A stretch of DNA of 64,000 bases from an uncultured Chloroflexia bacterium (GTDB taxonomy: Bacteria > Chloroflexota > Anaerolineae > B4-G1 > SLSP01). Each line of letters begins with the position of its first letter. Position 1 is the first letter of the stretch. Location: NCBI GenBank assembly GCA_963751345.1, contig CAVVUS010000032.1, positions 26,271-90,270 of the forward strand, read 5' to 3'. The translations under genes and the position numbers were made by a program. Below, one piece after another: positions 22,150 to 36,728 of the stretch. The notes below the pieces were generated by a model, which had not been told where the DNA came from, made no database searches, and was given only the letters and a program-made list of their open reading frames with translations.

Positions 22150-23166
22150 TTACGGCAGAAACCGCTCCGCATAATGACACGCCACAGTGTGCCCCGGTCG
22201 CAGTTCCCGCAGCAGGGGGATGTCGACCGAGCAGTTCGGCTGCGCGATCGGGCACCGCGGATGAAAGCGGCACCCGCTCGGCGGATTGATCGGATTCGGG
22301 ATCTCCCCCTCGGGCATGGCCTCTGTCCGCCGCTCGTGCGGATTCGGCACCGGCACCGCCGCCAGCAGCGCCTGGCTGTACGGGTGGAGCGGATACGTGT
22401 ACAGCTCGCGCAGCTCCGCGATCTCCGCCATGAACCCCAGATACATGATTCCCACCCGATCACAGATGTACTTGGCCGTCGCCAGGTCGTGCGTGATGAA
22501 GAGATAGGTGAGATTCAGATCGCGCTTCAGCTCGTTCATCAGGTCGAGCAGCAGCGCCCGCACGCTCACGTCCGCCATCGCGATCGGCTCATCGGCCAGC
22601 ACCAGGTCGGGCCGCGTCACCAACGCCCGTGCGATAACTGCGCGCTGCCGCTGGCCACCGCTGGTCTGGTGGGGAAACTTGTTGTAGAAGTAGTTGGCGG
22701 GGGCGAGGCCGACCTTCTCCAGCATCTCCGTCACCGTATCCCGCCGCTCGTCACTGCTCATGTCCGGGAAGTGGATCTCCAGCCCGTAGCCGATCGACCG
22801 CCCCAGCGACATCCGCGGGTTGAGCGAGGCCATCGGGTCCTGGAAGATCACCTGCATGCGGCTGCGCAGCCGGCGCAGATCCCGCGCGCCTAGCTTGGTC
22901 AGGTTGATGCCGTCGAAGATGACATCCCCTTCAGTCGCCTTCGTGAGCCCCAGGGCCACCCGTCCCGTCGTCGTCTTCCCGCTGCCGCTCTCGCCGGCAA
23001 GGCCGAAGACCTCCCCGCGGCGGACGTTGAAACTCACCCCATCCACGGCACGCACAAAGCGCTGGCTGCCGCCCGTGAGCTGTCCCAGCAGCCCCTGCTG
23101 AACCGGAAACCACTTCTTGACGTCGCGGATCTCCAGGAGATTGTCCGTCGTTGGTGATTCGCTCAT
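22150..23166 (-). CDS. Peptide/nickel ABC transporter ATP-binding protein (OppF/DppF-like)
   Basis: GESGSGKTT, SGGQRQR, LADEP, HPYSQALL, GCRFHPRCP. Confidence 0.92.
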   Translation of the reverse strand: MSESPTTDNLLEIRDVKKWFPVQQGLLGQLTGGSQRFVRAVDGVSFNVRRGEVFGLAGESGSGKTTTGRVALGLTKATEGDVIFDGINLTKLGARDLRRLRSRMQVIFQDPMASLNPRMSLGRSIGYGLEIHFPDMSSDERRDTVTEMLEKVGLAPANYFYNKFPHQTSGGQRQRAVIARALVTRPDLVLADEPIAMADVSVRALLLDLMNELKRDLNLTYLFITHDLATAKYICDRVGIMYLGFMAEIAELRELYTYPLHPYSQALLAAVPVPNPHERRTEAMPEGEIPNPINPPSGCRFHPRCPIAQPNCSVDIPLLRELRPGHTVACHYAERFLP

Positions 23167-24184
23167 CGTCTCTCCTCCCACCCCTCCGGGGGCTCTTGAT
23201 GGAGCCAGCAGTGCACCAGGTGCCCGGTCTCACCCTCGGCCGGCAGCAGCGTTGGCTCGATCTCACTGCATATCGGCATCACCTTCGGGCACCGCGGATG
23301 GAAACGGCAGCCCGTGGGCGGGTGCGTCAGGTTGGGCGGCTCGCCGCCCATCTTGTAGAGTTCCTCGCGCTCGTCGAGCTTGATGTTGGGCACGGACCTC
23401 AGAAGCCCGTCGGTATACGGGTGCAGCGGGTTGTCGAACACCGTCGACCACGTCCCCGATCTCGGCCATCTGGCCCGGCGTACATCACGGCGATCCGGTC
23501 CGCGATCTGGGCCACCAGCGCGATGTTGTGCGTGATCAGCAGGATCGTCAGGTTGAACTCATCGCGCAGCCGCTTGAACTCGTCGAGCAGCTTCGCCTCG
23601 ACGATCACGTCTAGCGACGTGGTCGCCTCGTCGGCGACGATCAGATCGGCGTTGAGCACCAGGCCCAGGCCCACCATCACCCGCTGGCGCATCCCGCCCG
23701 AAAGTTGGTGCGGGTAGTCTCTGAGGCGGTTCTGCCGGATGCCCAGCACCTCGATCAGGGTCCGCACGCGCTCCAGCGCGGCCTGCACCGGCGTCTTCTC
23801 GTGCACCTCGATCGCCTCGACCATATGCTCGTCGACGCGCTGCACCGGGTTGAGCGACGTCAGCGGATCCTGGAAGATCATGCTCACCCTCCGCCCACGG
23901 AAATCGCGCATCTGATCCTCGTCGTAGGCCATAATGTCCTCGCCGTCGAAGACAATCTGCCCGCCGCTGATCTCGCCGGGCGGCGCGATCATCCGCATCA
24001 ACGCCTTGCCCATCGTGCTCTTGCCACAACCGCTCTCGCCGACCAGGCCCAGGATCTCGCCTTTGAAGATGTCGAACGAGACCTCCTCGACGGCGCTCAG
24101 CGACCCCAGTCGCGTGTGATACGTGACCGAAAGATCGCGAACCTGGACGAGAACATCCTTCTCTTCCGTTGAGTCTGTCGCCAT
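23163..24184 (-). CDS. Peptide/nickel ABC transporter ATP-binding protein (OppD/DppD-like); frameshift near 23440-23480
   Basis: GESGCGKS, YPHQLSGGMRQR, HPYT.GLL, GCRFHPRC. Confidence 0.9.
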
Positions 24185-24185
24185 C

Positions 24186-25469
24186 TCAGACCTCCGATAG
24201 GCGCGGATTGAGAATCTCTGAGAGGCTCTCACCCAGCATACTGAAAGCAAATGTCACCAGCGTCACCATGGCGCCGGGGAACGTGATCAGCCACCACGCG
24301 CGACGCAGATAGTCCTGACCACGGGCCAGGTCGATACCCCAGTCGGGCGTGTCCGGCGGAATGCCGAAGCCCAGGAAGCTCAGGCCGGCCTCGGTCAGGA
24401 TCGCGTCGGCCACGTTGACCGAGAAGATGATCACCACCGACGGGATGACGTTCGGCAGGATAAAGTCCTTCATGATCCTGAGCGCCGTGGCACCCAGACT
24501 CCGGGCGGCCTCGACGTAGAGCTCCTCCTTGACCGCCAGCGTCTGTCCCCGCACGATGCGGTAGTACGTCGGCACATAGAGCACCGCGATCGCCACGATG
24601 ATGTTGCCGATGCCCGCGCCCAGCACCGCCGCGATGGCGATGGCAAGGATCAGGCCCGGGAAGGAGTAGAGGCTGTCCATCAGCAGCGTGAGCACGCGAT
24701 CCAGCGGGCCGCCGACGTAGCCGCTGATCAGACCCAACGGCACGCCCAGCACGAGCGCCGCGATCGCCGAGCTCAGGCCCACGATCAGCGCAATGCGCGT
24801 GCCCCAGATGATCCGGCTCAGGACGTCCTGGCCGATCTGGTTCGTTCCCATCACGAACCCGCGCCCTGTCGACTCGCGCAGCCCTGCCGCGATCTGCAGA
24901 TCCGGGTAATTCGGGAGCAGAGGCTGGAGGTTGTCCGGCGTGGCCACGACCGCGTTGATGTCCCCCGCCTCCAACGCGCTCAGCGCCTCGTCCAGCGTGC
25001 TGTACCGCTCCGGACGAGGCTGGTACCTTACGTTCTGACCCTCTGCGCTCGCCTGTGCATTCAGGTCGTCCAGCGCCTCCCGGAGTGCCTGGGCCGCAGC
25101 CGTCCCCAACACGTAGCCGATCCTATCGGTGCTCGCGGCTACGTCCGCCAGCGACGTCACATCCGCGTCCGTTCGCGTCACCAGCACGTAGTCGGAGGGC
25201 GCCTCACCCGGTGCCAACAGCGAGGGGCCTACCTCGGCGCGTGGGTCATACGGCGAGAAGAGGCCGGGGAAGACCCCCACCGCGATGATGAAGAGCAGCA
25301 GCAGCGCGCTCATCAGCACGAACCACCAGTCACCACCATACCACTTCCGCGCCAGCAGTAGCCTGCGCACAAACCCAACGCGGTCCAGCTCCAATTGCCA
25401 TTCAGGTACCTCGACGTCGATGTCGCGCGTGGCGTCCGTCTGCGCTCGATTGCGTAGTTGCCGTGCCAT
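24186..25469 (-). CDS. OppC/DppC-type permease with a ~110-aa inserted extracytoplasmic domain
   Basis: PYDP...GTNQIGQDVLSRIIWG, EAA loop YVEAARSLGA, PDWG, WWLITFPG. Confidence 0.9.
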   Translation of the reverse strand: MARQLRNRAQTDATRDIDVEVPEWQLELDRVGFVRRLLLARKWYGGDWWFVLMSALLLLFIIAVGVFPGLFSPYDPRAEVGPSLLAPGEAPSDYVLVTRTDADVTSLADVAASTDRIGYVLGTAAAQALREALDDLNAQASAEGQNVRYQPRPERYSTLDEALSALEAGDINAVVATPDNLQPLLPNYPDLQIAAGLRESTGRGFVMGTNQIGQDVLSRIIWGTRIALIVGLSSAIAALVLGVPLGLISGYVGGPLDRVLTLLMDSLYSFPGLILAIAIAAVLGAGIGNIIVAIAVLYVPTYYRIVRGQTLAVKEELYVEAARSLGATALRIMKDFILPNVIPSVVIIFSVNVADAILTEAGLSFLGFGIPPDTPDWGIDLARGQDYLRRAWWLITFPGAMVTLVTFAFSMLGESLSEILNPRLSEV

Positions 25470-25477
25470 ATCTCCTC

Positions 25478-26500
25478 CTAATACCGGATGCGCGGATCGA
25501 CGAACGCGTACAGGATGTCGACCATAACACTGATGAGACCCACAAAGAGCGCGAAGACTGCGATCACTGACTGCACCGCGTTATAGTCGCGCAGCTGGAT
25601 CCGGGTCACCAGGTACCGTCCCATACCGGGCCACGAGAACGTGGTCTCGGTCAGCACCGCCCCTGCCAGCAGCAGCGCAAACTGCAGCCCGATCAGCGTG
25701 AGGATAGGGATGAAGGTGTTGCGCAGCGCGTGCCGGTAGACCAACCGCCGCTCGGGCAGACCTCGCGCACGGCCTGCGACGATGAAGTCCGTCTGGAGCG
25801 CCTCGATCATGTTCACGCGCGTCAAGCGAATAAAGGGACCGGTCAAGATGAGGCCCAGCGTGACCGACGGCATGATCAGGTGAATCAGCAGCGACTTCAG
25901 TGCGGGCCAGTTCCGTCCGAGGATGGCATCGATGATGTAGAAGTTCGTGATGGAATGGAAATCTCGCAGGAGCAGCGTGTCCATTCGCCCGGCCAGGGGC
26001 AGCAGCGGAATCCGCACAGAGAAGAGGATCTGGAATAACAGCCCCATGAAGAAGACCGGAATGGCGTAGACGATGATGCTGAAAACGCGGATGCCGTAGT
26101 CCACAGGCTTCTTGCGGTGTTTCGCTGCAAAGGCTCCTCCATAGATGCCCACAATGACGGTGAAGGCCATAGCCGGCACCGTTAGCTCGATGGTGGCAGG
26201 CAGCCGTTCGCCCAACTCATCACGGATGGGCCGCTCCCCCTGGGTCAGCGCGTTCCCGAAGTCCAGGCGCACCATCCGCCAGAGAAAGTCGAAGTACTGC
26301 ACCACGAGGGGTCGGTTGAGCCCCAGACGCTCCCGGATCGCTTGCGCTTGCTCCTCGCTGACCTTGGGTCCGAGCTGTGAACGGATAGGGTCTCCCGGCA
26401 GGATTCGCATGACGAAGAACACCATGCTTACCAGGATAATGATCATGGGGATGGTGAGGAGGATCCGGGTAATGATGAAGTTACGGAATGATACGGACAT
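25478..26500 (-). CDS. OppB/DppB-type permease
   Basis: LPGDP, GLNRPLVVQY, RLPATIEL, ARGL, ETTFSWPGMG, DPRIRY. Confidence 0.92.
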   Translation of the reverse strand: MSVSFRNFIITRILLTIPMIIILVSMVFFVMRILPGDPIRSQLGPKVSEEQAQAIRERLGLNRPLVVQYFDFLWRMVRLDFGNALTQGERPIRDELGERLPATIELTVPAMAFTVIVGIYGGAFAAKHRKKPVDYGIRVFSIIVYAIPVFFMGLLFQILFSVRIPLLPLAGRMDTLLLRDFHSITNFYIIDAILGRNWPALKSLLIHLIMPSVTLGLILTGPFIRLTRVNMIEALQTDFIVAGRARGLPERRLVYRHALRNTFIPILTLIGLQFALLLAGAVLTETTFSWPGMGRYLVTRIQLRDYNAVQSVIAVFALFVGLISVMVDILYAFVDPRIRY

Positions 26501-26650
26501 AGTGAAACTCCAATCCTGAATTGCTTCCTCTGTCGCTCAACTCTGCGAAGGCTAGCGGGGACCCGAGCGTACGGGTCCCTGGTGCCTCGCTAGCCTTCGC
26601 AGGGTTGCTGGTGAAGGTAGACTGGTAGCGAATCCATTATACTCAAGAAA

Positions 26651-26682
26651 CCGGGGCGGGAGAGTAACTCTCCCGCCCCGGG
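26651..26682 (-). terminator. Hairpin downstream of the SBP gene (partial terminator or mRNA stabiliser)
   Basis: CCGGGGCGGGAGAG-taa-CTCTCCCGCCCCGG followed by TTTCTT on the minus strand. Confidence 0.6.
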
Positions 26683-26705: not shown

Positions 26706-28433
26706 CTACTGACCGCCTGTCATGTAGTTCATGTTGAAGACGAGGTAGCGGAGTGCCGGGGCGTTGATCTCTTCGACCGTCAGACCCGAGACGCTCTGCA
26801 ACCGGACCGACTCCACAGGGCCTAGCGTGCGCCAGGCGATGTCGATTTCACCGGTCTCGACAGCATTGCCCATCGTTGTAGGATCGGCGAAGTAGCGGAT
26901 GATCACGTTCGGGATCATCGGCTTATCGTCACCGAAGTAGTTGGGGTTCGCCTCGAGCACCATCTGCTCGCCCGGCGTGTAGTTCACCATGCGATACGGG
27001 CCGATCCCGTCGACCTTGTCGGGGAACTGCACGATCTGGTCGGTCGGGAAGATGTTGGGGTTCGCCGGCACGAACGGGGCCGTCGCCGCCAACGCATCGA
27101 AGAAGCCGTACGAGTCGTTCAGCGTGAAGACCACGGTCGACTCATCGGGTGCCTCGACACCCGCGACGTACGCCTGGACCAGGCCGGAGACCTGACCCTC
27201 AAGACCGAAACGATCCCACATCCGGACGTAGTCGGCCGAGGTGACCGGCGTGCCGTCCGCATACATCAGGTTGTCGCGCAGCGTGAACGTGTAGGTCTTG
27301 CCATCGTCGCTGACGGTGGGGAAGTCCACTGCCGCGCCGGGTACCAGCGTGGACGTGCCGGGCTCGTACCGCAGCAGCGGCACGCCGGTGTTCTTGATGA
27401 TCTCCCAGTCGTGGGTCGCGTAGGCATCCTGCGGATCGAGGCTGTTCACCTCATCGGTCGTGCCGATGATGATCGTGTCGGATGTGCCCGCCGCGGGTGA
27501 AGCATCAGCCGTGAAGTTCAGGACGTTGTAGTTGAACTCGAACGGCGCGCCGATCTTGACACCCTCGACGCCATCGCGATACGTGACGTACTCGGGTTCC
27601 CAGAAGAGCGGGAGGGTGGGAACCTGCTCGGCATAGTAGTCGCCGATTTCCTGGTAGAGCGAAGCGCGCTCGTCAGGATTCGTGGAAGCCGCAGCCCGCT
27701 TGAGCAGGTCGTCCATCTTCGGATCGCAGTAGTTCACGCCGTTGTCGGGCGACTGGATACAGGACGCGAAGGGCGTCAGCCAGTTGTCGGGATCCGCGAA
27801 GTCAGGGAACCAACCCAGAATGAAGACGGGGAAGGCATCGCCGGCCACAAAGCTGTCGACGTACTCCGCCCAGTTCTGGCTCTTCAGGTTCACCGTCATC
27901 AGACCGGTTTCCTCGAGCTGCTCCTTGAGCACCTGCATGACGTCAGCTGTCGTCGTGCCGTAGTGCTCGGGGGGATACCAGAGATCGAACGTGAACTTGT
28001 TATCGGTCGTGTAGCCCAGGTCCTCGAGGAGGCTGATCGCCATAGGCAGATCGCGGGTACCATACTTGTCCAGGAACGGCTCGGTCGCGTATGGATAGCC
28101 CGGGGGCACCATGGAGTAGGCCGGAATGTTCCGTCCTTCAAAGACACGATCGACGAGGACCTCGCGGTCGATAGCCGCCGCAAAGGCCTGCTTCAACTCG
28201 GGAGTCCACAGCGGTTGGGCACTGGCCATAGTGGGCTCAGCGGTGGGCGTCGCCTCAGCCGCTGCGCTTGTCGTCGCCGTCGGTTCCGCCGTAGCTGCCG
28301 CCATGGTCGGTTCCGACGTGGCCGCAGCCATCGTCGGCTCCGATGTCGTGGCGGCCGGTGTGCCACACCCGGCCAGCGCGAGAGCTAACAGCACCACGGC
28401 TGTCAGCAAACTGTAGAGTGACTTACGGGACAT
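26706..28433 (-). CDS. Family-5 ABC substrate-binding lipoprotein, circularly permuted
   Basis: LAGC lipobox and T/A/P/E linker. KQAFAAAIDRE (normally mid-protein) comes first; TIIIGTTDEVNSLDP...YTFTLR...GPY...RYLVFN (normally N-terminal) comes last. Confidence 0.9.
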   Translation of the reverse strand: MSRKSLYSLLTAVVLLALALAGCGTPAATTSEPTMAAATSEPTMAAATAEPTATTSAAAEATPTAEPTMASAQPLWTPELKQAFAAAIDREVLVDRVFEGRNIPAYSMVPPGYPYATEPFLDKYGTRDLPMAISLLEDLGYTTDNKFTFDLWYPPEHYGTTTADVMQVLKEQLEETGLMTVNLKSQNWAEYVDSFVAGDAFPVFILGWFPDFADPDNWLTPFASCIQSPDNGVNYCDPKMDDLLKRAAASTNPDERASLYQEIGDYYAEQVPTLPLFWEPEYVTYRDGVEGVKIGAPFEFNYNVLNFTADASPAAGTSDTIIIGTTDEVNSLDPQDAYATHDWEIIKNTGVPLLRYEPGTSTLVPGAAVDFPTVSDDGKTYTFTLRDNLMYADGTPVTSADYVRMWDRFGLEGQVSGLVQAYVAGVEAPDESTVVFTLNDSYGFFDALAATAPFVPANPNIFPTDQIVQFPDKVDGIGPYRMVNYTPGEQMVLEANPNYFGDDKPMIPNVIIRYFADPTTMGNAVETGEIDIAWRTLGPVESVRLQSVSGLTVEEINAPALRYLVFNMNYMTGGQ

Positions 28434-33810: not shown

Positions 33811-33839
33811 TTGACACATCGCCCACACCGTGGCATTAT
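33811..33839 (+). promoter_or_regulatory. Sigma-70 promoter of the cbiMQO operon
   Basis: TTGACA-17 bp-CATTAT with a TG extension. Confidence 0.65.
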
Positions 33840-33857
33840 TGCGACCAGTTGCAATAA
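33836..33857. promoter_or_regulatory. Fur/Zur-like operator palindrome TTATTGCGAC-CA-GTTGCAATAA
   Basis: Arms match at 9 of 10 positions; AT-rich; overlaps the -10 box and likely TSS of a metal transporter. Confidence 0.7.
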
Positions 33858-33876
33858 CAACAGGAGGCTCTCGTCG

Positions 33877-34828
33877 ATGCTGCTTTCGCCCGTCGCCATG
33901 CATATTCCCGATGGATTCCTCTCCGTCCTCGTCGCCATCATCGCGTGGATGATCTCGCTCCTCGTCGTGGGGTACGCACTCAAGCGCGTCAGCGCGGATC
34001 TGGGCGAGCGCCAGGTGCCGCTGATGGGCGTCCTCGCCGCCGCGGTCTTCGCGGGCCAGATGCTCAACTTCACCGTCACGGGTGGCACGTCAGGTCACCT
34101 CATCGGCGCCGCGCTCGTCACGGCGCTGCTCGGTCCCTGGGCCGGCATCCTCGTGATGACCTGCGTCGTCGGCGTCCAGGCCCTCATCTTCCAGGATGGC
34201 GGCTTGCTGACCCTCGGCGCAAACCTCTTGAATATGGCCGTCATCAGCGTCGCCGTCGCGTACTTCACCTACCGCTCGTTGAGGCGTTTGGCCGGGAACA
34301 GGTCCTGGGGCACCGCCGTGGCCGGATTTGGCGCGGGTTGGCTCTCGGTCTTCATCGCCGCGCTGGCGTGTGCCCTTGAGCTTGCGCTCTCCGCGCACCT
34401 CGCCCGCGAACGTCGCGGTTCCGGCTATGGCCGGGATCCACGCGTTGATCGGCATCGGTGAGGGGCTGATCACCGCCGGCGCGCTCGCCTTCGTGCGGAC
34501 CGCCAGGCCGGAGCTGCTGGCGGAGGGCTCGAAGGCCGCCGCCGGCAAAGCCGTCTGGATCGGAGGACTCGCCATCGCCGTGCTGCTGGCCGTCCTCTCG
34601 CCGCTGGCCTCCGCCCATCCCGACGGGCTCGAATGGGTCGCCGAGCAGCAGGGGTTCCTGGACCTGGCCCGCGGTCCGCTCTACGGCATCATCCCGGACT
34701 ACGCGGTGCCCGGCCTCTCCAACGAGGCGCTGGCCACCGTCCTCGCGGGTATTGTCGGCGTCGCCATCGTCTTCGGGGCTGCCCTCGGGGTTGCCTACCT
34801 ACGCAAGCGCCGCACCCCGGCGCTGTAG
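33877..34828 (+). CDS. cbiM: ECF transporter S component CbiM/NikM fused to a PDGLE (NikN-like) domain; frameshift near 34395
   Basis: [21 protein letters not shown]...GAN; ASAHPDGLE and IPDY. Confidence 0.9.
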
Positions 34829-36016: not shown

Positions 36017-36728
36017 ATGCACCATAACACCATAGAGATCACCGGTCTTAGCTACAACTACCCGGATGGCCGCCAAGCCCTCACGGACATCTCCCTCAAG
36101 ATCGAGGCCGGCGAGAAAGTCGCCCTGATCGGCCCCAACGGTGCCGGCAAGTCCACCCTGCTTCTCCACCTCAACGGCCTGCTGCTGTCGCAGCGAGGTC
36201 AGGTCGACGCCTGTGGGTTGGCCGTCGACGAGAAGCACCTGGGCGCCGTCCGCGCCGCCGTCGGCCTCGTCTTCCAGGATCCCAATGACCAACTCTTCTC
36301 CCCCACCGTCTTCGACGACGTCGCCTTTGGCCCCATCTACCAGGGCCACCCGGCCGATGAGGTGCAGCGCCGTGTCGACCGAGGCCCTCACAGCGGTAGG
36401 GATGGAGGACTACGTCTCCCGCGCGAGCTACCACCTCAGCCTGGGCGAGAAAAAGCGCATCGCCATCGCCACCGTGCTCACCATGCTGCCCGAGATCCTG
36501 GTGCTCGACGAGCCCTCCGCGGGTCTCGACCCCCGCGCCCGCCGCGAGCTCATCGAGCTGCTCCACAGCCTCCAGCCGACCGAGCTCATCGCCACCCACG
36601 ACCTCGCCCTCGTCCGCGATCTCTGCACCCGTACGATCATCATGGACCGGGGTCGTATCGTCGCCGATGGCCCCACAGACGAGCTGCTCGTCGACGAGGC
36701 GCTGCTCCTGGCCCACGGGTTGGCGTGA
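36017..36728 (+). CDS. cbiO: ECF transporter ATPase CbiO; frameshift near 36378
   Basis: GPNGAGKST, VFQDPNDQLF, LSLGEKKR, LDEP. Confidence 0.9.

Follow-up and report, generated by a model that had tools for sequence, protein, structure and literature searches.

A circularly permuted family-5 substrate-binding lipoprotein in a dppABCDF-type operon of Anaerolineae

The reordered gene and its operon

The stretch analysed here (the window; 64,000 nucleotides from an uncultured Chloroflexia bacterium) carries an operon of the dppABCDF type, in which homologs of dppB, dppC, dppD and dppF stand behind the gene of a substrate-binding lipoprotein. The reading frame of the binding protein runs from 28433 to 26706 on the minus strand and encodes 575 aa without an internal stop. 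The parts of the protein and the features downstream of it are the following.

28365..28433, minus strand, signal peptide with lipobox and lipidated Cys23 (aa 1-23; from the sequence and the alignment of homologs)
28215..28364, minus strand, flexible Pro/Ala/Thr tether (aa 24-73), now placed on the C-lobe (pLDDT <50 for aa 22-69)
27513..28214, minus strand, normally C-terminal half of the family-5 fold, with most of the C-lobe, the second hinge crossing and the old C-terminus (aa 74-307; PF00496 positions 212-364, alignment to DppA 1dpp/8z1y)
27477..27512, minus strand, linker of 12 residues (aa 308-319) between the former C- and N-termini, sequence TADASPAAGTSD
26706..27476, minus strand, normally N-terminal half, with the N-lobe, the first hinge crossing and the first C-lobe strand to YLVFN, then an 8-residue tail and the stop codon (aa 320-575; PF00496 positions 2-209, model residues 319-562 matching 1dpp 1-265)
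26538..26681, no strand assigned, two inverted repeats in the gap from the binding-protein gene to dppB, with arms 26538-26560/26585-26607 and 26651-26665/26667-26681
25478..26500, minus strand, DppB/OppB-type permease, 340 aa (PF00528 and PF19300)
24186..25469, minus strand, DppC/OppC-type permease, 427 aa, about 115 aa above the usual length (PF00528)
24858..25205, minus strand, single small lobe, domain 2 of the family-3 amino-acid-binding type, set into the first outward loop of DppC (aa 89-204, 116 residues)
23166..24250, minus strand, DppD-type ATPase, frameshifted near 23474-23525 in the assembly (PF00005)
22150..23181, minus strand, DppF-type ATPase, 343 aa (PF00005 and PF08352)

The family-5 model PF00496 matched the lipoprotein with 244 bits against a gathering cut-off of 32.4, and the match was split over two stretches. 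Scanned alone, aa 70-308 corresponded to model positions 212-364 (E 4e-27) and aa 318-575 to positions 2-209 (E 7.9e-45), so that the order of the model is reversed. The preliminary description of this DNA, made from the letters alone, had proposed that the two halves of an OppA/DppA-type protein are exchanged and had expected such a reversed pair of partial matches; the 12-residue linker that it had placed at 27477-27512 is exact. The swap itself stands, whereas the limits given for the halves had to be moved at both ends: homology starts at Pro74, about five residues before the ELKQA at which the protein was said to begin, and the chain continues for six residues beyond the RYLVFNMN at which it was said to end. 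The linker measured 12 residues in 103 of 103 homologs (of 120) in which the flanking pattern matched, and 5-13 residues followed the final FN in 114 homologs. Cys23 was nearly invariant in the homolog alignment A1, and the lipobox pattern was found in 94 of the 109 homologs with a Met start. The tether comprises 49 residues here, with a median of 38 (range 6-63) in 104 permuted homologs, and 9-38 residues in the normally ordered sisters, as counted in the 7 of 12 with a lipobox match. One permuted homolog, P0048, has neither the lipobox Cys nor the usual tether, and its N-terminal part resembles, by eye, a LysM-type segment.

As is characteristic of family-5 members, the protein is exported (lipobox Cys23) and encoded together with two permeases and two ATPases. 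Among the 80 loci from GTDB genomes described below, dppB followed the permuted gene in 74 and dppC in 73. The NCBIfam OppC/DppC models cover only aa ~200-425 of DppC. In dppD, tblastn with three intact DppD homologs placed the change of frame at 23474-23525, which is either a sequencing error or a real break; in the latter case the importer encoded here may be defective. Elsewhere in the window, at 33811-34828 and 36017-36728, overlapping reading frames of cobalt/nickel ECF-type transporter genes suggested further frameshifts by eye and hint at indel errors in the assembly. Rfam gave no meaningful match for the inverted repeats at 26538-26681; such hairpins could possibly stabilise or attenuate the mRNA and in this way tune the expression of the binding protein versus the permeases.

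Fold, cut site and binding pocket

The AlphaFold2 model of the permuted protein, built on a 59-row alignment of permuted proteins, was confident (pLDDT 89.2, pTM 0.82), with a pLDDT of 98 over aa 301-320, which span the linker. The C-lobe half was matched to DppA by sequence alignment together with the confident model, aa 73-292 corresponding to 274-491 of E. coli DppA (1dpp), and the N-lobe half was matched by structural superposition, model residues 319-562 falling on 1dpp 1-265 (Z 22.6, rmsd 2.1 Å, 238 residues aligned). In the structure matches the N-lobe half superposed with Z 22-24 and an rmsd of about 2 Å. The three-domain, two-lobed cluster C fold is thus predicted to be kept despite the swapped halves. 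By sequence, and for the N-lobe half also by structure, both halves align with E. coli DppA (1dpp, 1dpe, 8z1y), OppA (1b05), GsiB/YliB (1uqw) and B. subtilis OppA (8are), at about 20-28% identity.

The new start, Pro74, corresponds to DppA Pro275, and the cut falls between DppA residues ~265 and ~275, an interval spanned jointly by the C-terminal tail and the new N-terminal residues, so that almost nothing was lost or duplicated at the cut. In the model the chain ends with the first C-lobe strand (a long strand, 551-566) and begins in the loop behind that strand. With the new N-terminus in a C-lobe loop, the lipid tether leaves from the C-lobe and not from the N-lobe; the 1dpp alignments hence bear out, at the level of the model, the earlier proposal that the membrane tether had moved to the opposite lobe. 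The chain of DppA crosses between the lobes at points which we take to be near residues 260 and 478; since the former lies inside the 1dpp 1-265 match and the latter inside the 274-491 match, both hinge crossings stay covalent. Among the structure matches listed, collinear alignment to solved chains reached at most 263 columns and a TM-score of at most 0.37 by query length. That no solved chain aligned beyond about half of the query would be expected of sequential aligners given a permutant, and none of the solved chains among those matches had the permuted family-5 order.

According to a study of DppA (PMC12136057), D436 of the E. coli protein holds the amino group of the dipeptide and R383 its carboxyl group. 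Asp211 of the permuted protein aligns with D436, whereas Glu156, beside a two-residue gap, takes the place of R383; two cysteines align with the pair in the C-lobe of DppA. Together with the similar dppBCDF-type operon, these are the likenesses to the E. coli system, from which the protein differs in the swap between DppA ~265-275, the tether on the C-lobe and the replacement of R383 by Glu. The motifs around Asp211 and Glu156, GWFPD and W[YF]PPEHYG, were present in 120 of 120 homologs and also in the normally ordered sister P0127. As the same pocket motifs occur in both forms, the swap left the pocket unchanged, and judged by this conservation the pocket is under strong constraint.

The replacement of the carboxylate-binding arginine suggests that the ligand is probably not a plain dipeptide. 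It would probably be amine-bearing, a short peptide or peptide-like compound being the somewhat likelier case and another amine-bearing solute a serious second one. The scores on named subfamilies agreed with none of them: the DppA equivalog NF043070 gave 84 bits against a cut-off of 1005 (the normal sister P0127 also failed, with 118), the OppA equivalog NF011684 gave 117.5 against 947, and the protein stayed below the cut-offs of NikA and GsiB and of every other NCBIfam equivalog. As for clues to the ligand from neighbouring genes, nothing was conserved beyond dppBCDF in the 80 loci, and no riboswitch was found in the stretch from the window or in 10 loci.

Distribution and history of the permuted order

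Of 7999 scored candidates, 1709 were relatives, and the best 120 of these, drawn from NCBI, JGI, ENA and Logan sources, were used to count the order of the halves. They were 73-100% identical to the query over 95-100% of its length in one local alignment (the first being the window's own protein), and all 120 were reversed at the same point, at about position 286 of a profile made from 75 normally ordered relatives. When the Longilinea ortholog was used to scan GTDB, 123 stretches were confirmed and 80 loci obtained. Each of the 80 has the reversed order (two are cut by contig starts and one is frameshifted), and they belong to Anaerolineae or Chloroflexota, apart from one Thermoanaerobaculia record. 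Homologs with the same order, for which a search had been recommended, are therefore abundant. They include those of the cultured strains Longilinea arvoryzae, Ornatilinea apprima, Anaerolinea thermolimosa and Pelolinea submarina, the last with a complete chromosome. In 18 genomes of the window's genus we found ten intact permuted genes, one frameshifted copy and one fragment at a contig end. In 401 genomes drawn evenly across the class, with three candidates scored per genome and hence as a lower bound, the permuted gene occurred in at least 4. Its distribution is patchy.

Two of the loci deserve separate mention. A close relative (84-89% identical; L105:6232-7943, genome G002) has its permuted gene split by a frameshift. 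The gene of the Thermoanaerobaculia record (L099:2842-4557) has no dppB or dppC in the following 6 kb, and could be a transferred or an orphan copy.

These independent assemblies also bear on the suspicion that a misjoined contig had exchanged the halves. The operon has one or more frameshifts in this assembly, which speaks for such an artefact and is also the reason why the intact reading frame, which the preliminary description had put forward against an artefact, is weak as an argument by itself. Its conclusion was right and the real proof comes from the homologs: the same order in 120 of 120 of them, in intact form in 10 of 18 genomes of the genus and in cultured strains refutes the misjoin, to which we assign a negligible probability. 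In public sequencing runs, small shares of the gene were found in 16 (best share 0.31); four were compared at the junction, all as contigs. Among the records shown from these four runs (44 more exist), none spanned the linker with 31 letters on each side, and two that came out of the old N-terminal half stopped within it, at 27507 and 27509.

The trees drew on 14 of the 120 close permuted proteins and on no more than 22 of the 80 loci, with duplicates, proteins >950 aa and fragments covering <420 model positions removed. The combined tree had 174 rows after 10 of 184, mostly with other cut sites, were left out. In this tree the permuted clade (43 rows, support 100) had as its sister group P0127 and the G024 protein, both normally ordered (99), within relatives of normal order. 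When the halves were treed separately (44 rows each), the same permuted clade was recovered with SH-aLRT 97 and 98, and the same normal sister with 98 and 97. A careful tree of 36 rows grouped 13 permuted rows (100/99), 12 normal rows (100/99) and both together (100/99); its deeper rows were normal except for P0136. The normal sister is about 60-64% identical in each half, with 62% and 64% to the G024 protein.

The numerous family-5 genes of these genomes (11 matching frames were listed in G000, the window's own genome) and the visible exchange of N-terminal modules in the subfamily (P0049) would make it conceivable that each half came from a separate family-5 gene and that the two were fused in reverse order. 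We consider this very improbable. Both halves share their nearest normal relatives, give congruent trees and have similar identity to the G024 protein, and hardly anything is missing or repeated at the cut, the tail and the new start together covering DppA 265 to 275; a chimeric origin is thereby largely refuted. The protein is accordingly a natural circular permutant, with its segments swapped, its old termini linked, no duplication and both halves from one ancestor.

The order changed more than once in the family. A single origin for this clade and P0136 was rejected (p-AU 4.8e-56), and the same cut needs six state changes in the 174-row tree and in each 44-row half tree, all of them forced by starred branches. 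The six switches concern this clade, P0136, P0177, P0200, P0206 and P0210, each beside a neighbour of normal order. Such counts cannot separate gains from reversals, and the switch was repeated either way; given the chosen outgroup, parsimony favours one gain in the ancestor of this clade. Other cut points were also seen among the 150 representatives listed (at model positions of about 361, 342, 268 and 91), and the window's own genome holds a second permutant (G000:C33:7389-9146 on the minus strand, L104:5390-7147), in which model positions 377-505 precede 31-358 and dppB/C-type genes follow.

Duplication, fusion and trimming form the standard route to circular permutation. The intermediate expected from it was sought among about 8000 scored candidates in each of two ways, so that its absence is weak evidence: four matches in proteins of 1008-2875 aa did not contain it, nor did 105 new proteins collected with the normal sister, the longest of which had 609 aa (94 permuted, 11 normal). 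The protein P0122 was considered as a head-to-tail dimer intermediate and rejected, as it proved to be a mosaic, 40% related, that belongs to another lineage and contains incomplete internal repeats. It and P0128 are family-5 proteins of 1036-1037 aa composed of a partial, a full and a partial copy. From such sequences internal duplication appears to be active in this subfamily, though not as the expected intermediate.

The DppC insert and the interpretation of the swap

The extra length of DppC is accounted for by the insert in its first outward loop. Pfam gave no match for the insert, the full two-lobed domain PF00497 not being recognised, whereas a profile of 53 inserts weakly matched family-3 amino-acid-binding proteins (best E 2.7e-4) in domain 2 only. 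The model of the insert (pLDDT 87) was most similar to Peb1A (2v25) residues 99-195 (Z 14.2, rmsd 2.4 Å, 96 aligned), with many other family-3 relatives close behind, and a search of the ESM Atlas returned no usable match. Peb1A and domain 2 of TmArgBP (6gpm; Z 12.5) are alike in fold and length, at 17-23% identity; the insert differs from family-3 binding proteins in consisting of one lobe only, set in the loop of a peptide-type permease with no evident partner for a ligand cleft. We found nothing relevant to this insert in the literature. Among normal-order relatives, 14 of 30 loci (L109, L112, L113, L117, L119-L121, L124-L126, L129, L131-L133) have frames of 714-843 aa in which a whole family-3 binding domain appears, by eye, to be fused in front, and the permuted homologs P0049 and P0097 also carry a family-3 fusion in front (PF00497, NCBIfam). 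Such front-fused domains are a possible source of the DppC lobe. The more distant normal-order operons L102 and L103 have a DppC without the insert; at L102:7302-8810 and L103:4927-6504 an extra outward insert lies in DppB instead, with a match to bacterial SH3.

The insert was present in each of the 73 permuted-gene loci that hold DppC, and contains three invariant Arg. Of the 401 genomes, 9 bear it; the binding protein is permuted in 4 of these and normal in 4, with G407 unassigned. Of the four normal cases, G230 and G389 have the insert and a full normally ordered gene in one operon, G024 has its normally ordered gene and the insert-bearing DppC on different contigs, and in G314 the binding gene is split over two contigs and matches the normal order across the cut. 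The insert is older than the permutation, and the idea that it arose to compensate for the swap was rejected, because it also accompanies normally ordered binding proteins. A predicted complex of the binding protein with the insert scored 0.52, in comparison to 0.00 for the best of three controls; the runs agreed in at least 84% of contacts, with a partner pLDDT of at least 85. Of 157 solved complexes 116 attained the mark for this score, as did 2 of 215 mismatched pairs; at 0.60 or below it was attained by 18 of the former only and by both of the latter, and these counts hold only roughly here, because our own alignments were used. It is a fair guess from the prediction that the insert is a docking arm for the binding protein. 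A functional analogue would be the P2 loop of MalF, which projects outward and holds the binding protein.

Building on the reversed order, its conservation in the clade, the operon, the confident model and the surviving normal sister, we take the protein to be a genuine natural permutant of a cluster C lipoprotein, which probably still acts as the binding subunit of the adjacent dppBCDF-type importer and probably arose once in the ancestor of the clade by a change close to neutral. We infer that, with a ligand carrying a free amino group in its cleft, it would close in the manner of a Venus flytrap and then hand the ligand to DppBC. The swap may have been tolerated because the old termini would be close enough for a 12-residue link, because the new ends would fall in the loop that directly follows the first hinge crossing, leaving both crossings covalent, and because the long flexible tether would make the lobe of attachment unimportant. 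The single origin from a normally ordered gene would most plausibly have passed through tandem duplication, fusion and trimming. If the permutation is close to neutral, this would explain why the same loop was cut repeatedly; the excess of permuted over normal proteins (94 vs 11) could instead mean an advantage.

The position of the tether can matter in some systems, as suggested by M. tuberculosis DppABCD, where a cluster C binding protein with a lipid tether likewise serves a DppBC channel: in that system (PMC10954201), DppB recognises the lipid anchor and the N-terminal loop, which are needed for assembly, and docking involves the hinge and the N-lobe, whereas here it is the C-lobe that bears the tether, and an additional lobe is present in DppC. 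For this reason we kept, as an unlikely alternative, a reading in which the permutation is tied to the half binding protein in DppC, whose lobe would clamp the binding protein, take over the positioning normally done by the N-lobe tether, and so have allowed or favoured the move of the tether to the C-lobe. Consistent with it, all 73 permuted operons whose locus includes DppC carry the insert, although kin among these operons are not independent; the three invariant Arg of the insert face an acidic binding protein (73 Asp+Glu vs 28 Lys+Arg), the predicted complex lends weak support, and the insert predates the swap, as a precondition should. Against such coupling, the insert does not require the swap, being accompanied by a normal-order binding protein in 4 of 9 insert-bearing genomes, the permuted gene of L099 has no dppBC in the following 6 kb, and the same cut, as judged from the binding proteins alone, occurs in the four distant lineages P0177, P0200, P0206 and P0210. 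Extended to a rebuilding in two steps, the coupled history would run from the capture of a docking arm by DppC, through the release of the binding protein from an N-lobe tether that had positioned it and the re-cutting of the chain at a recurrent hot spot, to a permuted form that outgrows its normal sister; we hold this sequence of events to be rather improbable as well.

The near-neutral permutant remains our preferred reading, and the transport chemistry itself is probably ordinary. Importers of cluster C are already known, as is natural permutation among binding proteins of other clusters: in PMC2395249 it is described for glycine-betaine- and molybdate-binding proteins and CysB, with the position of the pocket conserved, and the words "oligopeptide" and "dipeptide" do not occur in its main text. 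Those permutants (PDB 2b4l, 1r9l and 1sw1 for the OpuAC/ProX type) are, like the present protein, natural ones among substrate-binding proteins, but they belong to a smaller two-domain class with <24% identity between members, whereas here the protein is of the three-domain cluster C and a 60%-identical normal sister survives. This sister clade of Anaerolineae (P0127, P0276-P0286, G024) has the same pocket motifs and the same operon with the DppC insert, and differs in its normal chain order, 5 of its 12 members being without a lipobox by the pattern used. Our literature search, with subscription journals mostly outside it, found no permuted family-5 binding protein, in keeping with the novelty supposed in the preliminary description; supplements (e.g. 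the additional files of CPSARST) or permutation databases could list a pair. The permuted family-5 clade is thus real and conserved, and apparently undescribed in print.

Few transport proteins have been studied as well as the binding proteins of cluster C, and all the solved ones listed have the normal order; collinear annotation splits the permuted proteins into two partial matches. What is surprising is the repeated switching at one loop and the half-domain grafted into DppC. The opening site in the C-lobe, tolerated by nature, is useful for the design of sensors or fusions. The permutant and its 60%-identical normal sister, from cultured Anaerolineae or close kin, offer a matched pair in which the effects of topology and tether on folding, closing and docking can be compared. 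If the two-step rebuilding were true, it and the five or more other switches at this loop would make family 5 a natural experiment in repeated, datable circular permutation.
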